Source: Mageeibacillus sp. UBA1255 (GTDB lineage Bacteria > Bacillota > Clostridia > UBA1212 > UBA1255). Taken from it: a stretch of 43,287 nt of DNA. This document shows, piece by piece, positions 16,907-26,193 of this stretch (its first letter is position 1; every line of letters starts with the position of its first letter). Both the position numbers and the translations under genes were made by a program. The stretch lies in assembly GCA_002308795.1 (NCBI GenBank), contig DBVV01000072.1, forward strand, positions 818-44,104. Reading direction: 5' to 3'. The notes under the pieces were generated by a model that worked only from the letters and a program-made list of their open reading frames with translations, searched no databases and was not told the DNA's origin.

Positions 16907-18442
16907 ATGTCCGGAAAAGTGTATGTGGCGATAGATCTCAAATCATTCTATGCTTCGGTCGAGTGCGTTGACCGGGGCATAGATTCTCTGTCGTCATATC
17001 TTGTTGTCGCGGACGAGACCAGAACAGAAAAAACTATATGTCTGGCTGTTTCTCCGGCGCTTAAAAGCCACGGTATCCCCGGGCGGCCGAGATTGTTTGA
17101 AGTGATCGCGAGAGTGAACGAGGTCAATGCCGGGCGCCTCGCCGCTATACAGAAGAAGTACGGTAAAGATGCAAAATTTACCGGTACGGCGTTCGACGAC
17201 AGAGTGCTCAGATCTGATGAGACGCTGAAACTGGGTTTTACGGTGGCAAGGCCGCGTATGAGGCGTTATATGGAGATCAGTTCTAAAATTTACGGGATCT
17301 ATCTCCGCTTCGTCTCCCCGGAAGATATGCACGTTTACTCAGTGGACGAAGTGTTCATCGATGCGACTCCGTATCTTGAACTCTACCATTTAGATCCGGA
17401 ACAATTTGCTCGTATGCTCGTTCGCGAGGAGCAGAAGGAGACAGGAATAGCCGCGACGGCCGGTATAGGCACGAATCTGTACCTTGCGAAGATCGCTATG
17501 GATATAGAAGCGAAGCATATGGCGCCGGACGCGGACGGAGTAAGGGTGGCCAGCCTGGACGAGCGCGCTTACAGAGAAAAATACTGGTGCCATACTCCGA
17601 TAACCGATTTCTGGAGAGTCGGAAAGGGTTACGAGCGCAGACTTGAGAGCGCAGGCATGCGGACGATGGGCGATATTGCGAGGATGTCTGTCTACAACGA
17701 AGATAAATTGTACAAATTATTCGGAGTAGCGGCCGAACTGCTTATTGACCACGCATGGGGATGGGAGCCGTGCACTATTAAAGACATACACGGATGCGAG
17801 CCGGAAAACAGAAGCCTGAGCGTAGGGCAGGTATTGTCCGCACCGTACCCGTTCGATAAAGCAAAACTCGTGGCAAGAGAGATGGCGGATTCGCTCGTGC
17901 TTGACCTGGTCGAAAAACGTTTGAAGACTGATCAGCTCGTATTGACGGTAGGATATGATACGGAAAACGTCAGGAGGTCCGAGGCCGGGTACGGGAATGA
18001 GCAGCCGGGAACGGAGATCGACAGATATGGCAGGAAGGTGCCTAAAAGTGCACACGGCTCTCAAAATCTGGGCGGATTTTACGATTCCACGAAAAAAATA
18101 CTGACGGTGCTGAACGAACTGTTCGACAGAATAGTTGACCCCGGCCTGACGGTCAGGAGGATGTACGTTGTCGCAAATCACGTGATATCTGCCGAAACGG
18201 CCGATAAACGGAACAGGGAAAAGACAGCGGTAAAGCAGTTGAGCCTGTTTTCGGACGAAGAAGCTGAAGAACGGGCCGAAAGAGAATCGGAGGATAAACT
18301 CCGGAAGGAACACGATATGCAGAAAGCGGTGCTCGATCTCAGAAGGAGGTTCGGGAAAAACGCTGTCCTGCGGGGAATGAACCTGGAAGAAGGCGCTACC
18401 GCTATCGAGCGCAATTCACAGGTCGGAGGACACAGGGAGTAA
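16907..18442 (+). CDS. Y-family (translesion) DNA polymerase
   Basis: N-terminal VAIDLKSFYASVEC catalytic motif, VYSVDEVFIDATPY and the GIGTNLYLAKIA helix-hairpin-helix region typical of the UmuC/DinB-like family. Confidence 0.85.
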   Translation: MSGKVYVAIDLKSFYASVECVDRGIDSLSSYLVVADETRTEKTICLAVSPALKSHGIPGRPRLFEVIARVNEVNAGRLAAIQKKYGKDAKFTGTAFDDRVLRSDETLKLGFTVARPRMRRYMEISSKIYGIYLRFVSPEDMHVYSVDEVFIDATPYLELYHLDPEQFARMLVREEQKETGIAATAGIGTNLYLAKIAMDIEAKHMAPDADGVRVASLDERAYREKYWCHTPITDFWRVGKGYERRLESAGMRTMGDIARMSVYNEDKLYKLFGVAAELLIDHAWGWEPCTIKDIHGCEPENRSLSVGQVLSAPYPFDKAKLVAREMADSLVLDLVEKRLKTDQLVLTVGYDTENVRRSEAGYGNEQPGTEIDRYGRKVPKSAHGSQNLGGFYDSTKKILTVLNELFDRIVDPGLTVRRMYVVANHVISAETADKRNREKTAVKQLSLFSDEEAEERAERESEDKLRKEHDMQKAVLDLRRRFGKNAVLRGMNLEEGATAIERNSQVGGHRE

Positions 18443-18464
18443 AAAGTTCGGGAGCGGCTGGATA

Positions 18465-18719
18465 ATGGATGCTTTAAAAAAATATGCCGATATAATCGAT
18501 ATGCCGCACCACCGTTCTGCGTCAAGAAATCATATGACGATGAAGGAGCGGGCAATGCAGTTCGCGCCTTTCGCTGCCCTCAGGGGATATGACGAAGAAA
18601 TAGAAGCATCTAATTACGCCGTCGATAATTCGGCATACAGGGACGATCTTTTCGGGGAAGACGGATTTGAACATTCTCTGAACTTCGGAAACGGAGATTT
18701 TTACGATGGGAACAGCTGA
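18465..18719 (+). CDS. YolD-like accessory protein (tentative)
   Basis: Small ORF immediately after the Y-family polymerase, with a RAMQFAPFAALRGY motif resembling YolD-like proteins that accompany such polymerases in Firmicutes. Confidence 0.5.
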   Translation: MDALKKYADIIDMPHHRSASRNHMTMKERAMQFAPFAALRGYDEEIEASNYAVDNSAYRDDLFGEDGFEHSLNFGNGDFYDGNS

Positions 18720-19602
18720 AGATTATAAAGTATTAGGCCTCGAAGAGGGAACTGACAGAGAAACGGTAGAACGAAAGTACGGCGCGATGTTAAGGTCATA
18801 CAAAAGCCGTACCGACGAATACGGCGCGACCGACGAGGATATGGAGTATTACAAAACGATCACGCAGGCATACGACAATATCGTCGGGACCGTGCACGAT
18901 TTTTCTGATCCCAACCCGACTTCTCCGCTGCCGTTCAAATTCCGCAACTTTTTCTATAAATTATCCGCAAGGCTCGATCATTACAAATTCATAATTTTCG
19001 CCGTTCTGATCACAGCCGTGCTCGGAGTACTGATATATTTCCAGGTAAAAGATGCAGGGAAAGACGACCTTTACGTAAAATTCGTAGGCGCATACTACGC
19101 GCTCAATCCCGGCGAGGTAGAATCCGAGCTTGGAGAAAAAAGCAAAGCGGTAAGATCTCCGCAGGTATCTTTCTTCTCAGTTACGGTAAACTCTTCGGAA
19201 AATGACAGCGAGACGGCCAACGGCGCGGTAGCGTTCAGAGCGCAGTTTACTGTAGGATCGATCGATATGATATTTATCGATAAAGACAACTTCGACGTTT
19301 ACCTCGACCAGTACGTGTTCCTTCCGCTTGATGATTTTCTAGCTCAGAACTCGAACGATCCCGCCTTCGCCGACCTTCAGTATTACAGATATGACGGCGA
19401 CAGGATACCGGAAGGAACTTACGGAATTGAATTCACACAAGCCGGTTCCGAATACTTTAAAGACACCTCCGTAATGTGGCTCAATGATGAAATACCGGGC
19501 CAGGAGAGAAGTATGATATTATGCGTGTGCCGCATGAGCAAAAATGCGGAACATACACTCGAATATATCAAAGAACTTGTGGACGGCGCATACGCCGGAT
19601 GA
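18706..19602 (+). CDS. J-domain-like membrane protein
   Basis: The N-terminus YKVLGLEEGTDRETVERKYGAMLRSY resembles J-domain helices I-II, but no HPD tripeptide is present. One TM helix is followed by an extracytoplasmic domain. It overlaps the preceding ORF by 14 nt. Confidence 0.5.
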   Translation: MGTAEDYKVLGLEEGTDRETVERKYGAMLRSYKSRTDEYGATDEDMEYYKTITQAYDNIVGTVHDFSDPNPTSPLPFKFRNFFYKLSARLDHYKFIIFAVLITAVLGVLIYFQVKDAGKDDLYVKFVGAYYALNPGEVESELGEKSKAVRSPQVSFFSVTVNSSENDSETANGAVAFRAQFTVGSIDMIFIDKDNFDVYLDQYVFLPLDDFLAQNSNDPAFADLQYYRYDGDRIPEGTYGIEFTQAGSEYFKDTSVMWLNDEIPGQERSMILCVCRMSKNAEHTLEYIKELVDGAYAG

Positions 19603-19661
19603 CCGGAGCTGATAATACTTTAATACAACTCCGCATTTTCAGCCGTTTGGCTCCGAGACGG

Positions 19662-20699
19662 TTACTTTTCGGAAATAAAATGAATGATGATATTCAGGTA
19701 GCGGATAAGCACCGTGTCTTTACCGAAGAATATCTCGTGTTTGCTGTCTTCAATTCTTGTAAGTGCTCCGTTAGGGATGCGGTCGCAGAAAATCTCGATA
19801 TCTTCCTTGATCACCATATTATCGCCGTCGGCAACGAACAGCATCACCGGTATTTTGATCTTTTCCGGTTCGCCTTTTTTCAAAAGTTTTTTTGTAACTT
19901 TTAGCGACTCGAGCGTCCAGCCGTACGAAGGGCCGTTGTTGGAATATTCCGGTTTGCTTAACTTCACGTCCTGATAGAACTCGAACCGCGCCTCTGAGCT
20001 TGACGCCGATTCATCGTATTTTTCACGCCCTTCGGGAACTTTAGAGAGAAACATCCTCTTTTTCTTTTGACCGAACGCCACAAAAGTACCTGCCATAGCC
20101 TTGGAAAGCCACAGCGGGAAACCGCCGCGTTCCGGAGCTATCATCGGAGAAGAAAGGATCGCCTTTTTGAACGGACAATCAGGATGCTTTTCAAGATAGA
20201 GGCCTGAAACTGCGCCTCCCATCGAATGTGCGAACAGATATAAAGGCTTTACGGCATCTGAAAGCTCAGCCGAAACGACTGCCTCGAGATCACTTACGTA
20301 CGTCTCGAACCGGTCAATGTGAGTGACCATTTTATCCGGTACCTCTCTATACGAAAAACCGTGCCCCCGCTGATCGTAAATTAAGACGCTGAAGCCGAAA
20401 TTCAAAAGATAATAAATAAACTCCCTGTATTTTTCAGTCGACTCCGTAAAACCGTGAACTATCAGCACGGTTCCTTTCGAATCGTCGCTTTTCTGATCAT
20501 ACCGTACGACGTGGAGGTTCCGCGAATCCGGAGCCTCAATATATTTATCCGTCCTGCAACTGTTAAGAAACGGAATGACTTTTTCATCCATAGCAGCAGC
20601 GTATGAATCCTCACGGACAAGGATCTCGCCGATCCGGGTAAGAACAGCGTCATTGACGTCATACGAATCATTTTTGGTATCACGAATCAGATCAAACAT
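19662..20699 (-). CDS. Alpha/beta hydrolase (lysophospholipase / monoacylglycerol-lipase-like)
   Basis: HGFTES oxyanion region, AHSMGG nucleophile elbow and a late D...H typical of this family. Confidence 0.75.
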   Translation of the reverse strand: MFDLIRDTKNDSYDVNDAVLTRIGEILVREDSYAAAMDEKVIPFLNSCRTDKYIEAPDSRNLHVVRYDQKSDDSKGTVLIVHGFTESTEKYREFIYYLLNFGFSVLIYDQRGHGFSYREVPDKMVTHIDRFETYVSDLEAVVSAELSDAVKPLYLFAHSMGGAVSGLYLEKHPDCPFKKAILSSPMIAPERGGFPLWLSKAMAGTFVAFGQKKKRMFLSKVPEGREKYDESASSSEARFEFYQDVKLSKPEYSNNGPSYGWTLESLKVTKKLLKKGEPEKIKIPVMLFVADGDNMVIKEDIEIFCDRIPNGALTRIEDSKHEIFFGKDTVLIRYLNIIIHFISEK

Positions 20700-20814
20700 G
20701 ATAATATTGCCTCCGCATTTATTGATTTGAACGAACAGGTATTGTCAGCTCTGGAATTGATTATATTTTAACAGAAAACGGCACAAAAATCAAAGCAAAT
20801 TACAGCGCAGGATA

Positions 20815-20844
20815 TTGACAACGCCGTCCGGTTTGTTGTAGTAT
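20815..20844 (+). promoter_or_regulatory. Candidate promoter of hisS
   Basis: TTGACA (20815..20820), 18-nt spacer, TAGTAT (20839..20844) preceded by TG. Confidence 0.45.
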
Positions 20845-20885
20845 AGCGTACGTGCTTGAGAAACCATGCATTTTCCGGAGGAAAT

Positions 20886-22235
20886 ATGAGTGAAGATGTT
20901 GAAAATAAAGTCAAAAATATAGTTGAACCGTCTATTCTTGCAGGATTCCAGGAATTTTTGCCTAAAGAACAGATGCTTTTTACAAAAATGCAGGATACGA
21001 TCCGTAATTCTTTTGAGAGTTTCGGATTTATTCCGCTGGATACGCCTGTACTTGAAAAATCGCAGGTGCTTTTAGCAAAAAGCGGAGGGGATACAGCTAA
21101 ACAGGTTTACCGGTTTGAAAAAGGCGATACCGATATGGCTATGCGCTTTGACCTCACCGTTCCGCTCGCCAGATACGTTGCCCAGCACTACGACAGCCTC
21201 GTTTTCCCGTTCAGACGGTATCATATCGGTAAAGTGTACAGGGGAGAGAGACCTCAGAAAGGCAGATTCAGAGAATTCTACCAGTGCGATATCGATATAA
21301 TCGGCAACGAAACGCTAAACCTCCTTAATGACGCGGAACTTGTCAGCGTTATTAATTCCACGTTTGAAAAGCTCGACATCGGCGATTTTACCATAATGCT
21401 GAACAACAGAAAACTGCTCGGGGGGTTCTTTGCGACGCTCGGCATCGGTGATCCTACGGACGCTCTTCGTGCGGTAGATAAACTTGATAAGATCGGCGCG
21501 GAAAACGTAAAAAAAGAGCTTACGGAGCAGGGGATCGGCAGCGAACAGGCCGAAAAGATCATTGCCCTCACGTCAGTGGGAGGTTTTCCTGCAGAAGTAT
21601 TCAAAGCGCTCGATGAGATGGGGATACGCGGGAAGAATGAAATGCTTGACGCAGGATTATCTGAACTTGAGAAAGTTTGCGGATATATTAAAATGTTCGG
21701 CGTGCCTGAAAACAGATACTGCATCGATCTGAAGATCGCCCGCGGACTGGATTACTACACCGGGACGGTATACGAGACGAAATTAAATGATTATCCCGAA
21801 CTCGGATCGATCTGCTCAGGCGGAAGATATGACGATCTTGCGTCGAATTATACAAAAAAGAAGCTGCCGGGCGTAGGTATATCTATCGGATTATCGCGGC
21901 TGTTTTATCAGCTGTGCGCGGCAGGGATAATAAAAGCAGACGGCAGGGCGACGCCTTCCGCCGTTTTGCTGATACCGATGGGAGACACGCTCGACTATAC
22001 GCTTAGCGTGGCGAAAAAGATCAGATCTTCAGGTATCGCGTGCGAAACGTATCTCGGAGAAGGAAAGCTCGGTAAAAAATTCGGTTACGCGGATAAACTG
22101 GGAATACCGTATGCTATCGTTTTGGGCGAAGACGAAATGAATGCCGGAACGATAACGCTTAAAGATATGAGGACCGGAGAGCAGAGATCTCTGGAATCGG
22201 TCGATGAATTTGTTAAAATGATCGCCTTGAGGTGA
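20886..22235 (+). CDS. hisS: Histidine--tRNA ligase
   Basis: Class II aaRS motifs as in HisRS (MRFDLTVPLARY, FRREYQCDIDIIG-like REFYQCDIDIIG, GGRYDDL) and a C-terminal anticodon-binding domain. The start is at ATG 20886, preceded by GGAGG. Confidence 0.9.
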   Translation: MSEDVENKVKNIVEPSILAGFQEFLPKEQMLFTKMQDTIRNSFESFGFIPLDTPVLEKSQVLLAKSGGDTAKQVYRFEKGDTDMAMRFDLTVPLARYVAQHYDSLVFPFRRYHIGKVYRGERPQKGRFREFYQCDIDIIGNETLNLLNDAELVSVINSTFEKLDIGDFTIMLNNRKLLGGFFATLGIGDPTDALRAVDKLDKIGAENVKKELTEQGIGSEQAEKIIALTSVGGFPAEVFKALDEMGIRGKNEMLDAGLSELEKVCGYIKMFGVPENRYCIDLKIARGLDYYTGTVYETKLNDYPELGSICSGGRYDDLASNYTKKKLPGVGISIGLSRLFYQLCAAGIIKADGRATPSAVLLIPMGDTLDYTLSVAKKIRSSGIACETYLGEGKLGKKFGYADKLGIPYAIVLGEDEMNAGTITLKDMRTGEQRSLESVDEFVKMIALR

Positions 22236-22270
22236 TCTTATAAACCGAAACGGAAGGATCGGCGGGACAT

Positions 22271-23230
22271 ATGATAACAGAAACTGGTGAAAAGCGCGGC
22301 AGGGGAAGGCCGAGAAAAAATCCGCCTCCGACGATAGTTGCAAAATCCACTATCGTCAGGAGAACTGTATCATCCGACGTTGACGGCACGGGTACGGAAG
22401 TGCTCCATTCGAGTCTGGACTTCGCCGGTGACAATGTCGTTCCTATCGTCCGAAGTGCAGCTGCCTCCCAGGCACCGGGAGGAGCGAACGATCCCGTTCT
22501 GCCGGCCGCTCCTGCGATCCGGGCGGATGCAGGAACCGCTTTGCAACCTGCTCCCAGAAGAAGAGGCAGACCTCCCAAAAACAAAACACCGCTCCCTGCG
22601 CCGGATGTGACTGGAGATACGGCAGTGCAGGGATCCGTTCAGACAGTTGAAAGGACCGTCGTAAGGCGAGCTGCTAAAACGGAAAACGTTACTGCATCCG
22701 ATGCGACGAGCCCGCAGATCATTGCAGACCGGCAGGCTGAACAAAATTCCGGCAGGATAAAGCCCGTTATCACCGAAGGCGCAAGCCCCGCTGGTTTTAA
22801 AGGTCCCGGAGTAAGGCTCGGAAAAGAAGTACAGATAGGAAATTCCAAGCTGAGCTTTTTCTACATCGTTTTCAAGAACTCGGAACACGACGAACTGCTT
22901 TACCCCGACACGATGCATACTATACAGCACCTGCTGAGCGCAGCATCGAAAGAAGCAGACCTGCCGAATATCGTTAAAATAATGCCGTGCGGAAGCAGGA
23001 TAGCAATGGAAGTGGCGGTCCTGGACGCACATTCGGACTTTGCTAAAAACGAGCTGAGAAAGCTGATGCTCACGGCTGCTTACATGGACAACATCCCGAA
23101 ATATGAGCTTGATCACTGCGCGAATCCCGAATATCAGAATTACGCGGACGCTCACAGAGAAATACGCGAGTTTATATACACGATGTACGGTATCACGCTG
23201 GATACGAGAACGGCAGATTACTCCTGGTAA
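22271..23230 (+). CDS. AT-hook-containing protein with a C-terminal LuxS-like domain
   Basis: Two GRP-core AT-hooks (GRGRPRKNP, RRGRPPKNK) lie in a Pro/Ala/Thr-rich N-terminal half. The C-terminal ~140 aa aligns by eye with S-ribosylhomocysteinase (FYIVF...PDTMHTIQHLL vs FDIRF...[11 protein letters not shown] of B. subtilis LuxS). Confidence 0.6.
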   Translation: MITETGEKRGRGRPRKNPPPTIVAKSTIVRRTVSSDVDGTGTEVLHSSLDFAGDNVVPIVRSAAASQAPGGANDPVLPAAPAIRADAGTALQPAPRRRGRPPKNKTPLPAPDVTGDTAVQGSVQTVERTVVRRAAKTENVTASDATSPQIIADRQAEQNSGRIKPVITEGASPAGFKGPGVRLGKEVQIGNSKLSFFYIVFKNSEHDELLYPDTMHTIQHLLSAASKEADLPNIVKIMPCGSRIAMEVAVLDAHSDFAKNELRKLMLTAAYMDNIPKYELDHCANPEYQNYADAHREIREFIYTMYGITLDTRTADYSW

Positions 23231-23240
23231 CTGTAATTAC

Positions 23241-23298
23241 CCGGCTTCGGTAACGAGCCAAAAGCCGGTTTTCAGCCGGACAATAAAAATTATTGTCC
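23241..23298 (+). terminator. Two tandem hairpins after the LuxS-like gene
   Basis: CCGGCTT...AAGCCGG followed by TTTT (23241..23272), then GGACAATA-aaaat-TATTGTCC (23278..23298). Confidence 0.5.
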
Positions 23299-23304
23299 TA
23301 TCTA

Positions 23305-23333
23305 TTCACAAATCCGTTTTTTTCGGGTATAAT
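23305..23333 (+). promoter_or_regulatory. Candidate sigma-70 promoter
   Basis: TTCACA (23305..23310), 17-nt spacer, TATAAT (23328..23333). Confidence 0.5.
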
Positions 23334-23387
23334 AACAATGCATGAACGTTCCGGAAGCGGACCCGATTGCGCTGGAGGTATAAATAT

Positions 23388-23912
23388 ATGAAAAAAAGGA
23401 AGCTGCTTACAGATATATTCACTGTGGTACTGATGCTGGCGATAGTTGTAGTCGTCCTCGCTTACCTCAACGTTTTTCCGGGTAAGGATGTGAACGAAAA
23501 GGGATCCCTTAACTACGCCATGGTCGCTTACGTGGGTATGCCGCTGGCACTTCTGTCCGTGCTGCTGATAGATCTTATATTCCCTCTGATCGATAACCGT
23601 AAAAGACTGTCTGAACCGGTCTTTATCGTAAAAGTGGTCGCAAAAACTCTGCTGTTCATTGCGGCCGTCGTAGTCGGAGTACTCTTCTTCCTCGTAAACA
23701 TCACTCCTCCGAAGAACGAATTCGTAAAAGTCGGTATCTTCTGCGCCCTTTATTTCGTGCAGTTCCTGATCAACCTCGATCCGCCGCTCAAGAAAAAGCT
23801 TGCCGCCCAGAAAGACAAGCAGGACGATAAAGATTATGAAGATTTCGATGACGATCTGGACGATGACGACGATTTCGACGATGACGATGACGAGAACACG
23901 TCCAAGAAATAA
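23388..23912 (+). CDS. Four-TM membrane protein with a poly-acidic C-terminal tail
   Basis: The start is at ATG 23388, with a GGAGG SD 8 nt upstream. It has four hydrophobic helices. The tail reads DDKDYEDFDDDLDDDDDFDDDDDENTSKK. Confidence 0.6.
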   Translation: MKKRKLLTDIFTVVLMLAIVVVVLAYLNVFPGKDVNEKGSLNYAMVAYVGMPLALLSVLLIDLIFPLIDNRKRLSEPVFIVKVVAKTLLFIAAVVVGVLFFLVNITPPKNEFVKVGIFCALYFVQFLINLDPPLKKKLAAQKDKQDDKDYEDFDDDLDDDDDFDDDDDENTSKK

Positions 23913-23937
23913 CTCCGTTGATAAAATGATATTTTCT

Positions 23938-23967
23938 CCGCCGGTGATCCAGCCGGCGTTTTTTTTT
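23938..23967 (+). terminator. Rho-independent terminator
   Basis: CGCCGG / CCGGCG 6-bp GC stem with an 8-nt loop, followed by nine T residues. Confidence 0.85.
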
Positions 23968-24031
23968 ACCGGCCGCAACGTGAAGAACGGTATAAAAAAA
24001 GAGAAAAAATAACAAAACGCAAAAAAAGTTC

Positions 24032-24060
24032 TTGACTGCCAAATAAAATATTGTTAAAAT
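24032..24060 (+). promoter_or_regulatory. Strong sigma-70 promoter of the aromatic amino-acid operon
   Basis: TTGACT (24032..24037), 17-nt spacer, extended -10 TGtTAAAAT (24052..24060). An A-rich UP-like tract lies upstream (24001..24028). Confidence 0.7.
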
Positions 24061-24106
24061 TCCGTCAATGCAAGTTCCGCCAGGTTCTTACAGGATTACA
24101 TACTGA

Positions 24107-24223
24107 ATGAAGGTGATGTTGATGCTGAATAATGATCTGAACGCAAACGGCCGTTTCACGTTCGTATATTCTGCATTCTATTTTGCCTCATCGGTACGTA
24201 ACTGGCGATGGCGGAAGTTCTGA
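24107..24223 (+). CDS. Candidate leader peptide rich in Phe/Tyr/Trp codons (38 aa, or 33 aa from ATG 24122)
   Basis: I translated it by hand as MKVMLMLNNDLNANGRFTFVYSAFYFASSVRNWRWRKF*. The internal ATG at 24122 has an AAGGTG SD 6 nt upstream. It lies in the 5' leader of the aro operon. Confidence 0.5.
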   Translation: MKVMLMLNNDLNANGRFTFVYSAFYFASSVRNWRWRKF

Positions 24224-24361
24224 TCTATTATTCTTATCCGGCGGAATACCGCCGCGGGTCCTGTTATCCCCGTAAAAATCAATACCTGAAACGAGCGCCG
24301 AAGGGACGGATATTGCCCTCCTGCCGCATTGAACGTATATTACATTAACGAGGGAAAAGAC

Positions 24362-25363
24362 ATGATAGTTGTCCTTAAATCAAACGTAAACGAAAACAGA
24401 CGCAAACAGCTGATAGACTGGCTCGAATCCCAGGAACTCAGAGTGCATATTTCCACCGGAGAATATCAAACGGTCCTGGGACTGATCGGAGACACTTCAA
24501 AGGTCGATATGGAGCTCATCGAGAGCCTCGACATAGTTGAATCGGTAAAGAGAGTTTCGGAAACTTTTAAACGGTGCAACAGAAAATTTCATCCGGACGA
24601 TACTGTCGTTGACGTGGCAGGTGTAAAGATCGGGGGAGGAAATTTCTGCATGATCGCAGGTCCGTGCTCCGTTGAGACCGAGGAACAGATCGTTTCGGTG
24701 GCAAAGGCTGTAAAAGCGTCCGGGGCCAATATTCTGAGAGGCGGAGCGTTTAAACCAAGGACCTCTCCTTACGATTTTCAGGGGCTTAAAGCGACCGGAC
24801 TCGAACTGCTGAAAATTGCAAGGCAGGAGACAGGCCTGCCGATCGTATCAGAGATAATGAGCGCACACGACCTTAAACTGTTCGAAGACGTCGATATCCT
24901 TCAGGTAGGCGCACGCAACATGCAGAACTTCGATCTGCTGATCGAGCTCGGTCACTTCGGAAAACCTGTCCTGTTAAAGCGCGGCCTGGCAAATACGCTG
25001 AAAGAACTGCTCATGAGCGCTGAATATATTATGGCGGGCGGTAACGAGCAGGTCATCCTCTGCGAGCGCGGGATAAGGACGTTCTCGGATTACTACAGAA
25101 ACACTCTTGACGTATCCGCGGTACCGATGCTGCACGAACTGTCGCACCTTCCCGTCATCGTTGACCCCAGCCACGCCACCGGAATAGCGCGGATGGTGCC
25201 TCCGATGGCATTGTCGGCCGTGGCCGCCGGAGCGGACGGACTTATCATCGAAGTCCATAACGATCCGATCCACGCTCTTTGCGACGGAGCTCAGTCTCTG
25301 AGACCGGAAGAATACGACGCGCTGGCCGGAAAGGTCAGGCGCGTAAGGGAGGCAATGCGATGA
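24362..25363 (+). CDS. aroF: 3-deoxy-7-phosphoheptulonate (DAHP) synthase, type I-beta with N-terminal ferredoxin-like regulatory domain
   Basis: KDO8PS/DAHPS-I-beta core motifs (GPCSVE, LRGGAFKPRTSPY, VDPSH). A ~70-aa N-terminal domain is present, as in the Thermotoga-type enzyme. The start is at ATG 24362 with a GAGGG SD. Confidence 0.9.
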   Translation: MIVVLKSNVNENRRKQLIDWLESQELRVHISTGEYQTVLGLIGDTSKVDMELIESLDIVESVKRVSETFKRCNRKFHPDDTVVDVAGVKIGGGNFCMIAGPCSVETEEQIVSVAKAVKASGANILRGGAFKPRTSPYDFQGLKATGLELLKIARQETGLPIVSEIMSAHDLKLFEDVDILQVGARNMQNFDLLIELGHFGKPVLLKRGLANTLKELLMSAEYIMAGGNEQVILCERGIRTFSDYYRNTLDVSAVPMLHELSHLPVIVDPSHATGIARMVPPMALSAVAAGADGLIIEVHNDPIHALCDGAQSLRPEEYDALAGKVRRVREAMR

Positions 25364-26193
25364 CAGCAGGTATCGTCGGGCTCGGACTTATAGGCGGGTC
25401 TTTTGCAAAAGCGTACGCGAAAGAAGGGCACAGAGTGCTGGGGGCAAACAGAAGCCGTCAGGTGCTCGATTTTGCGATCCTTTCAGGAGACGTACACGAC
25501 GAACTTACCGCGGACAATATCTCCGGGTGCGATATCGTTATCATCTGCCTTTACCCGGAAGCGGCTATCTCATACCTCGATAAAATGGGCCGTTTCATTG
25601 GCGATAAGCCCGTCGTGATCGACGCGTGCGGCACGAAGCGTCTGGTAGTCGAAGGCTGCTCGAAACTCGCCGAAAAATACGGTTTTACGTACGTAGGGGG
25701 CCATCCTATGGCCGGGACGCAGTATTCAGGCTACAAATACGCGAAAGCAAATATGTTCTCAGGCGCACCGATGGTGCTCGTACCGAGCGGATCTCCGGAT
25801 ATAGAATTACTATCAAGACTTAAAGAACTGCTCGCTCCGGCCGGATTCGGAAAATATACGGTGACCACCGCCGAAAAGCACGACGAAATGATCGCTTTCA
25901 CATCGCAGCTCGCGCACGTAGTATCGAACGCGTACGTAAAAAGCCCGTCATCAAAGAATCACAAAGGCATTTCCGCAGGCAGCTACAAGGACCTTACGAG
26001 AGTAGCGTGGCTGAACCCGGAGATGTGGGCGGAACTGTTCCTGGAAAATTCGGACAATCTTTCCCGGGAACTCGGCGGTCTTATAGAGGAGCTTAACAAA
26101 TATAAAGCGGCGATAGATTCCGGCGACAGGGAAACGCTGGTAAAACTGCTCGCCGATGGCAGAAGGATGAAAGAGGAGGCTGACGGAAGATGA
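25360..26193 (+). CDS. tyrA: Prephenate dehydrogenase
   Basis: GIVGLGLIGGSFAKA Rossmann motif and GGHPMAG catalytic His region. The start at 25360 overlaps the aroF stop (ATGA) and is preceded by AAGGGAGG. Confidence 0.85.
   Translation: MTAGIVGLGLIGGSFAKAYAKEGHRVLGANRSRQVLDFAILSGDVHDELTADNISGCDIVIICLYPEAAISYLDKMGRFIGDKPVVIDACGTKRLVVEGCSKLAEKYGFTYVGGHPMAGTQYSGYKYAKANMFSGAPMVLVPSGSPDIELLSRLKELLAPAGFGKYTVTTAEKHDEMIAFTSQLAHVVSNAYVKSPSSKNHKGISAGSYKDLTRVAWLNPEMWAELFLENSDNLSRELGGLIEELNKYKAAIDSGDRETLVKLLADGRRMKEEADGR

Follow-up and report, generated by a model that had tools for sequence, protein, structure and literature searches.

An AT-hook/LuxS fusion protein from an uncultured rumen genus of Clostridia is most likely a LuxS-family pseudoenzyme with a new architecture

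The 319-residue open reading frame at positions 22271..23230 (+) of the window, the whole 43,287-nucleotide stretch of Mageeibacillus sp. UBA1255 DNA that was analyzed, encodes a protein (P0001) in which an AT-hook-bearing N-terminal half is joined to a C-terminal domain with the fold of LuxS. Judged from its residues and those of its homologue clusters, this protein most likely represents a LuxS-family pseudoenzyme with a new architecture. With a modest lean in its favor, our explanation is that of a LuxS-derived pseudoenzyme tethered to DNA. Homologues of this protein are named S-ribosylhomocysteine lyase at NCBI, and the fusion family is at present mis-annotated under that name.

The C-terminal domain (residues 165–319, 22763..23227 (+)), supported by Pfam, Foldseek, VIA-align and a low dN/dS, is homologous to LuxS and shares its fold. 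The Pfam LuxS model PF02664 matches residues 177–302 with 28.9 bits (E 1.1e-6, cut-off 27) and the fusion protein with 30.8 bits in the genome scan, and in a phmmer search of the PDB the six best of eight matches are LuxS chains (best 1inn, E 0.006). The NCBIfam LuxS equivalog models give 12–24 bits versus cut-offs of 158–267 (best 24.4 versus 208). Two structure models were used, an AlphaFold2 model of the whole protein (model 1) and a model of the short-linker homologue P0005 (model 2). In model 1, the C-terminal domain is confident (pLDDT 70–90) and residues 1–23 and 52–161 are disordered; in model 2, the domain reaches a pLDDT of 85–94, with a mean pLDDT of 64–69 over all five models. The significant Foldseek matches of model 1 to the PDB are all LuxS (1ie0, E 1.4e-7, prob 1.00, TM 0.68–0.72), and VIA-align superimposes this model on LuxS with a Z of 15.9 and an rmsd of 2.3 Å over 135 residues, the next fold being of the M16/PqqF type (Z 6.9). 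A Foldseek-independent search of 48,161 chains with model 2 likewise placed LuxS first (Z 14.8 and 13.2; next 8.0), in a contiguous alignment of model residues 92–232 to chain residues 3–151. The LuxS similarity that the first-pass annotation had seen by eye is thus borne out by the Pfam profile and by the fold of two independent models. A search of the ESM Atlas gave ordinary LuxS clusters only, at 0.85. Five VIA rows for model 1 put residues 44–52 on the LuxS N-terminus, as if the linker were inserted inside the LuxS domain; this idea was dropped, since the more confident model 2 aligns contiguously and the pLDDT of the hairpin involved is about 45. A 1480-residue protein, P0035, was also rejected as a LuxS relative, being a HAMP-repeat protein with a spurious match.

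Active-site residues were mapped by a domain alignment with intact relatives and a HMMER alignment of one such relative to Bacillus subtilis LuxS. The motif HTIQH (residues 216–220, 22916..22930 (+)), the counterpart of LuxS HTLEH, places H216 and H220 at the metal ligands His54 and His58 and Q219 at Glu57. In KIMPCGS (22976..22996 (+)), of which PCGS (residues 239–242) corresponds to LuxS PMGC, K236 stands for Asp78, C240 for Met82 and S242 for Cys84. The third metal ligand, Cys126 in B. subtilis, is C283 (23117..23119 (+)). It had been claimed from the sequence alone that the three metal ligands are retained, that the catalytic Glu is Gln and that the catalytic Cys is out of register, and all of this holds across the fusion family: H216, H220 and C283 are invariant, the Glu57 position is always Gln, and the Cys84 position carries Ser, or Gly in one species (G006), with an invariant Cys240 two residues upstream. 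Three further replacements are also fixed in the family, Lys for Asp78, Val for Arg39 (V200) and Pro for His11 (P173), whereas the change of Arg65 to K227 is conservative (Lys or Arg in the family). About 50 of the 155 domain positions, the metal triad and Cys240 among them, are invariant.

The active site of LuxS is formed by Cys84, Glu57 and the Fe(II) ligands His54, His58 and Cys126 (PMC8233902). The Cys84 thiolate abstracts the C2 proton (PMC3907816), the substrate is bound by Glu57, Arg65 and Asp78, and activity is abolished in both the E57A and the E57Q variant (PMC2656534). Read against these roles, the mapping indicates that the fusion domain retains the putative His-His-Cys metal site and has lost both proton-transfer residues together with most of the substrate contacts, among which we count His11 and Arg39, presumed here to be substrate-binding residues of LuxS. 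The fusion domain has, by these replacements, probably lost catalysis.

The gene lies in a conserved setting. It starts 35 nt after hisS (20856..22235 (+)), a conserved neighbor, with no terminator in the 35-nt gap, and is followed by a gene for a protein with four transmembrane segments (4-TM) and a poly-acidic tail (23367..23912 (+)), the conserved downstream neighbor, which has a promoter-like site of its own. Two hairpins 3' of the fusion stop codon (23241..23298 (+); −24.2 kcal/mol, z −3.8), the first of them followed by UUUU, likely mark the end of the hisS/LuxS-like transcription unit. An Rfam search of 18000–26000 with E up to 0.1 gave no match, and a T-box or other riboswitch before hisS was rejected on this result; a phage origin of the fusion gene was rejected for lack of a PHROGs match. 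The 4-TM protein has no Pfam family and carries the poly-acidic tail in every version examined (three lineages, 13 loci). That this tail co-evolved with the basic hooks was considered and rejected, since the tail and the hisS/4-TM pairing occur order-wide without hooks.

Across the order, the space between hisS and the 4-TM gene preserves three stages of what appears to be one history. The 4-TM gene is found in 38 of 46 genomes, and in the 30 loci that were fetched its match begins about 60–120 nt after the end of hisS (about 290 nt in two) or a LuxS or LuxS-like gene lies between. A LuxS-type gene occupies this space in three lineages only. In two genomes (G029 and G033) it encodes a 150-residue LuxS with SFQVDH, HSIEH and PMGC, the sole LuxS of these genomes. 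In a third (G025; locus L027, contig C127, 2265–2714) it encodes a stand-alone form in which Glu57 is changed to Gln and Cys84 to Ser (hereafter Q/S), and a canonical LuxS lies elsewhere in that genome. In the window's genus (g1), the AT-hook fusion takes this place. The intact LuxS is thus found in one family of the order, the stand-alone Q/S form in a second, and the fusion in a rumen genus. In a maximum-likelihood tree of 135 LuxS domains, the three hisS-linked forms group together with an SH-aLRT support of 97. Within this clade, all fusions form a single lineage (100), set off by a branch of 1.36 substitutions per site, and their sister is the stand-alone Q/S form (93); the canonical LuxS of the window's own genome lies far from the fusion clade. 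Pfam LuxS scores fall along the series from 134 bits to 87 and then to 29–41. The fusion most likely descends from an intact hisS-linked LuxS, and the series is read most simply as an initial loss of the catalytic residues, followed by the addition of the hooks and a remodelling of the pocket. As for the stand-alone Q/S paralogue (P0011 and P0158–P0171; 149–150 residues; 18 member sequences), it keeps His11, Arg39 and Asp78, and its residues suggest an apparently undescribed pseudoenzyme or substrate trap of the LuxS family.

The N-terminal half of the fusion protein contains two GRP cores, G12–P14 in EKRGRGRPRKNPP and G99–P101 in PRRRGRPPKNK. AT-hook 1 spans K8–P19 (KRGRGRPRKNPP; 22292..22327 (+)), with R9, R11–K16 and P18 invariant across the fusion family, and AT-hook 2 is recognized by its motif at R96–K105 (RRRGRPPKNK; 22556..22585 (+)); homologues carry one to four such hooks. 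Both have the R-G-R-P core with basic flanks (KRGRGRPRK and RRRGRPPK). The Pfam AT_hook model (PF02178) scores 11.9 bits versus a cut-off of 17.4, in a 13-residue model for which scores are inherently low. Between the hooks lie a conserved segment (residues 21–53, TIVAKSTIVR...HSSLDFAG; 22331..22429 (+)), predicted to form a β-hairpin, and part of a variable Pro/Ala/Thr-rich linker (residues 54–164, 22430..22762 (+)) that is predicted to be disordered. The hairpin segment is present in the genus and absent from the divergent fusion P0012; model 1 gives it a pLDDT of 61–71, model 2 one of about 45. A search found no relatives of this segment outside the fusion family, and the idea that hook and hairpin form a mobile module carried by other proteins was rejected, as only family members were returned. 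Ala, Arg, Pro and Thr are abundant in the N-terminal 164 residues, whose net charge is +8; the C-terminal 155 residues have a net charge of −6. A stretch in the N-terminal region of the fusion protein and its closest relatives, VVPIVR (residues 56–61, 22436–22453) or AIPVIR, resembles the LuxS motif VAPYVR, which is itself found in its proper place as GPGVR (residues 178–182); the stretch is not conserved across the family and may be due to chance or be the vestige of a partial duplication.

The occurrence and conservation of the hooks are far above chance expectation. Among the 10,746 six-frame open reading frames of at least 80 residues in the window's own genome, RGRP is found at least once in 31 and twice only in the fusion, and every full-length homologue conserves the hooks. 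Elsewhere in this genome (G000), a clear AT-hook is seen only in a 533-residue protein (contig C16, 6637–8253 (−)) with an N-terminal NYN domain (104.9 bits), a long, repetitive Lys/Ala/Glu-rich tail and a C-terminal KAPRRGRPRKKAS. Conservation, the models and the positions of the motifs all agree with the two AT-hook cores in a disordered N-terminal half that the first-pass annotation had described. Its further statement that no in-frame ATG lies between codons 1 and 215 was confirmed, the GTG and TTG codons in frame being at 44, 91, 113 and 119. A Shine-Dalgarno sequence (AGGAGG or AAGGAG) precedes the homologous ATG in three of four relatives examined (G001, G002 and G005), all linker indels between species are in frame, and the dN/dS between the sister species G001 and G002 is 0.10 for residues 1–55, 0.22 for the linker and 0.03 for the LuxS-fold domain. 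All parts of the fusion protein are under purifying selection, and from the Shine-Dalgarno sequences, the low N-terminal dN/dS and the in-frame indels it follows that the hooks belong to the protein, as had been supposed.

The family is small. A search of 5.8 billion proteins yielded the protein's own 99% cluster and eight homologue clusters with 44–71% identity; those with a known source all come from rumen or uncultured Clostridia MAGs, and the named records from MAGs of sheep, yak and water-buffalo rumen or omasum. All seven full-length clusters start with KR(G/T/S)RGRPRK, the eighth (P0006) being partial with its N-terminus missing. In a profile search of 1.84 billion representatives, five clusters fell below 1e-30: three AT-hook fusions, the divergent metagenomic AT-hook fusion P0012 (442 residues, HTLQH and PCGS), and the 150-residue stand-alone P0011 (HSIQH and LMGS). 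Among GTDB genomes, the fusion is present in seven of the eight species of one genus, the window's own genome counted, and was found in no other genus among the 46 genomes of the order; it is known so far from this one uncultured genus and one divergent metagenomic sequence. A broader survey covered 169 aligned LuxS domains, made up of the best representatives and further retrieved sequences. HxxEH, with Glu57, is kept in 145 of them, and all but three of the Glu57 keepers that cover position 84 also keep Cys84. P0056, P0118 and P0105 keep HxxEH but read PMGS, a change of Cys84 to Ser only. Outside the fusion clade and the stand-alone form sister to it, none of the domains has Gln at the Glu57 position, and in the surveyed sequences AT-hooks are confined to this Gln clade, none occurring in a LuxS with intact catalytic residues. 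The author of the first-pass annotation knew of no described AT-hook/LuxS fusion, and a literature search also gave no paper naming LuxS together with an AT-hook.

In the window's own genome, a canonical LuxS (174.8 bits, contig 52) and a Pfs/MtnN (228 bits) are both present, the two genes for which a check of the rest of the genome had been advised; a SAH hydrolase was not found there. Both LuxS types occur in five of the eight genomes of the genus. In G001 and G002 (93% and 97% complete), Pfs and the fusion were found, but canonical LuxS and SAH hydrolase were not, and these species could have lost the recycling of S-ribosylhomocysteine (SRH) or their assemblies could be incomplete. The position of pfs varies: it directly follows canonical luxS in G003 (C11:1-1145, L033) and follows a tadA-like deaminase gene in G000 (C59, L019), G001 (C198, L032) and G002 (C149, L031).

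Taken together, these observations point to a LuxS-derived protein that retains the LuxS fold and the residues of the His-His-Cys metal site in a form that would be non-catalytic. With Glu57 and Cys84 lost and His11 changed to Pro, Arg39 to Val and Asp78 to Lys, it would cleave no SRH and yield no AI-2 precursor, and this task, where it is still done, would fall to a separate canonical LuxS and Pfs. The N-terminal half would serve as a flexible arm with one to four HMGA-type AT-hooks (two here), whose motif makes the minor groove of AT-rich DNA their most likely binding site. If the homodimer of LuxS, which has its active sites at the interface, is kept, each particle would carry four or more hooks, and this multivalency could make it an architectural or regulatory nucleoid protein that bridges or bends DNA; both DNA binding and dimerization are inferred. 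The non-enzymatic reading, first raised from the HTIQH and PCGS motifs, is strengthened by the further pocket changes (H11P, R39V and D78K) and by the same-locus series. Several observations sit less well with a DNA-tethered pseudoenzyme. DNA binding is deduced from a short motif with a Pfam score below the cut-off, and the roughly 50 invariant positions of the domain exceed what a bare dimerization scaffold would need, hinting at a retained pocket function. The gene is dispensable, given its clean absence from G003, of the same genus, where hisS stands directly before the 4-TM gene. The main awkward observation is that canonical LuxS was not found in G001 and G002, which a fusion still able to process SRH would account for more readily. 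Domain conservation, the metal site and the fixed Cys240 leave room for sensing or for new chemistry, both of which we rate below the pseudoenzyme.

As a special case of the pseudoenzyme, the protein could be a regulator that senses a ligand, a metal or the redox state, in which the pocket binds SRH, homocysteine, a DPD-like molecule or Fe(II)/Zn(II) and thereby alters how the hooks engage DNA. The stand-alone Q/S sister, with H11, R39 and D78 in place, resembles a natural E57Q/C84S substrate trap, crystals of the LuxS C84A mutant contain what is presumed to be a bound 2-keto intermediate (PMC3907816; entry 1ycl), and the metal site is retained in the fusion. In the fusion, however, unlike the stand-alone form, the SRH-binding residues are replaced, which makes SRH an unlikely ligand; moreover, the linkage to hisS is older than the change of function. 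We consider this regulator unlikely, although it deserves to be kept in mind. In its boldest form, to which we give rather less credence, a former AI-2 synthase would have become a chromatin protein that is also a one-component sensor: the dead pocket would read a methyl-cycle metabolite, Fe(II) or the redox state and signal to the nucleoid or to transcription through the AT-hook arm, with a His2Cys site to which Cys240 would possibly add a fourth or redox-active ligand, and the stand-alone Q/S form would be a "binding-only" intermediate.

Equally doubtful, in our judgment, is an enzyme with a new chemistry or substrate, in which the metal would act as a Lewis acid and Cys240 as the base, and the hooks would direct this activity to DNA, with a nucleotide or a lesion derived from ribose as a conceivable target. 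From its place two residues ahead of the old Cys84, Cys240 would face the same way as that residue if the segment is a β-strand, as assumed here, and could then replace it as base. The invariance of the metal triad and of Cys240, the domain dN/dS of 0.03 and the many invariant positions fit such an enzyme, as does the lack of another LuxS in G001 and G002. The Glu of HxxEH is the general base in LuxS and in the structurally related M16 metallopeptidases, yet the fusion always has Gln at this position, the SRH-binding residues are gone and no candidate for a replacement carboxylate was found. The E57Q variant of LuxS is, as already stated, inactive (PMC2656534).

The hooks themselves could serve another purpose than DNA binding, namely RNA binding, protein contacts or localization, for example through the poly-acidic tail of the 4-TM protein. 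AT-hook-like motifs can bind RNA, and the immediate downstream neighbor does have a long acidic tail. This tail and the hisS/4-TM linkage are nevertheless found in 38 of 46 genomes, mostly without a LuxS-like gene or hooks, which argues that they did not co-evolve with the hooks, and the first hook of the fusion nearly matches the first AT-hook of human HMGA1. A non-DNA role for the motifs is thus, in our estimation, improbable. That the protein is a functional S-ribosylhomocysteine lyase as annotated, with an insignificant basic tail, is very improbable: the Pfam score above the cut-off, the NCBI name and the lack of another LuxS in G001 and G002 speak for it, but the NCBIfam equivalog scores are far too low and both catalytic and three substrate-binding residues are replaced, when E57Q alone kills activity (PMC2656534).

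LuxS is among the most studied bacterial signalling enzymes, and genomes that contain it are routinely taken to encode AI-2 production. The residues of this family suggest that a "LuxS" recognized by Pfam can lack catalysis and serve another function, in which case annotations of rumen MAGs would over-count AI-2 producers. The locus also offers an unusually clean natural series from enzyme to pseudoenzyme to added module at one conserved position, and few descriptions of bacterial proteins with multiple AT-hooks seem to exist. In practical terms, the hosts are uncultured, the family is small and the host range is narrow.

Among known systems, Myxococcus xanthus CarD and eukaryotic HMGA proteins share with the fusion several RGRP hooks, placed in an unstructured part of the chain that adjoins a globular module without DNA-binding function. 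The hooks of the fusion are N-terminal rather than C-terminal, however, and there is no acidic tract in its chain; relative to CarD, the module is a LuxS fold in place of the RNA-polymerase-binding CarD_CdnL_TRCF domain, with no homology beyond the hooks. CarD, which works with a zinc-bound partner, and its orthologue were described in a 2010 paper as the only prokaryotic HMGA-like proteins known at that time (PMC2919716). A C-terminal LuxS domain in a longer polypeptide is also seen in Pfs-LuxS (P0046, P0062, P0084 and P0134), TIM barrel-LuxS (xylose-isomerase-like, PF01261; P0064, P0109 and P0121) and GIY-YIG-LuxS (P0145) proteins. In contrast to the fusion, these join an enzyme domain to a catalytically intact LuxS that keeps HxxEH and PMGC, and they have no AT-hook. 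With LuxS itself (PF02664; B. subtilis 1ie0/1j98 and Deinococcus radiodurans 1inn/1vgx), the fusion shares the fold (Z 15–16, rmsd 2.3–2.8 over ~135 residues), the His-His-Cys triad at the HxxxH and C-terminal Cys positions, and a clade (97) with the intact hisS-linked LuxS. It differs by Glu57Gln, Cys84Ser/Gly, Asp78Lys, Arg39Val, His11Pro and Met82Cys, by the 164-residue N-terminal extension with its hooks, and by scores far below the NCBIfam cut-offs. Finally, the stand-alone Q/S form (P0011) is set apart from the fusion by its length of ~150 residues, its lack of hooks, its retention of His11, Arg39, Asp78 and Met82, and a Pfam score of 87 versus 29 bits; the two are sister clades (93) at the same locus position, both carry Gln at Glu57 and Ser at Cys84, and both can coexist with a canonical LuxS.
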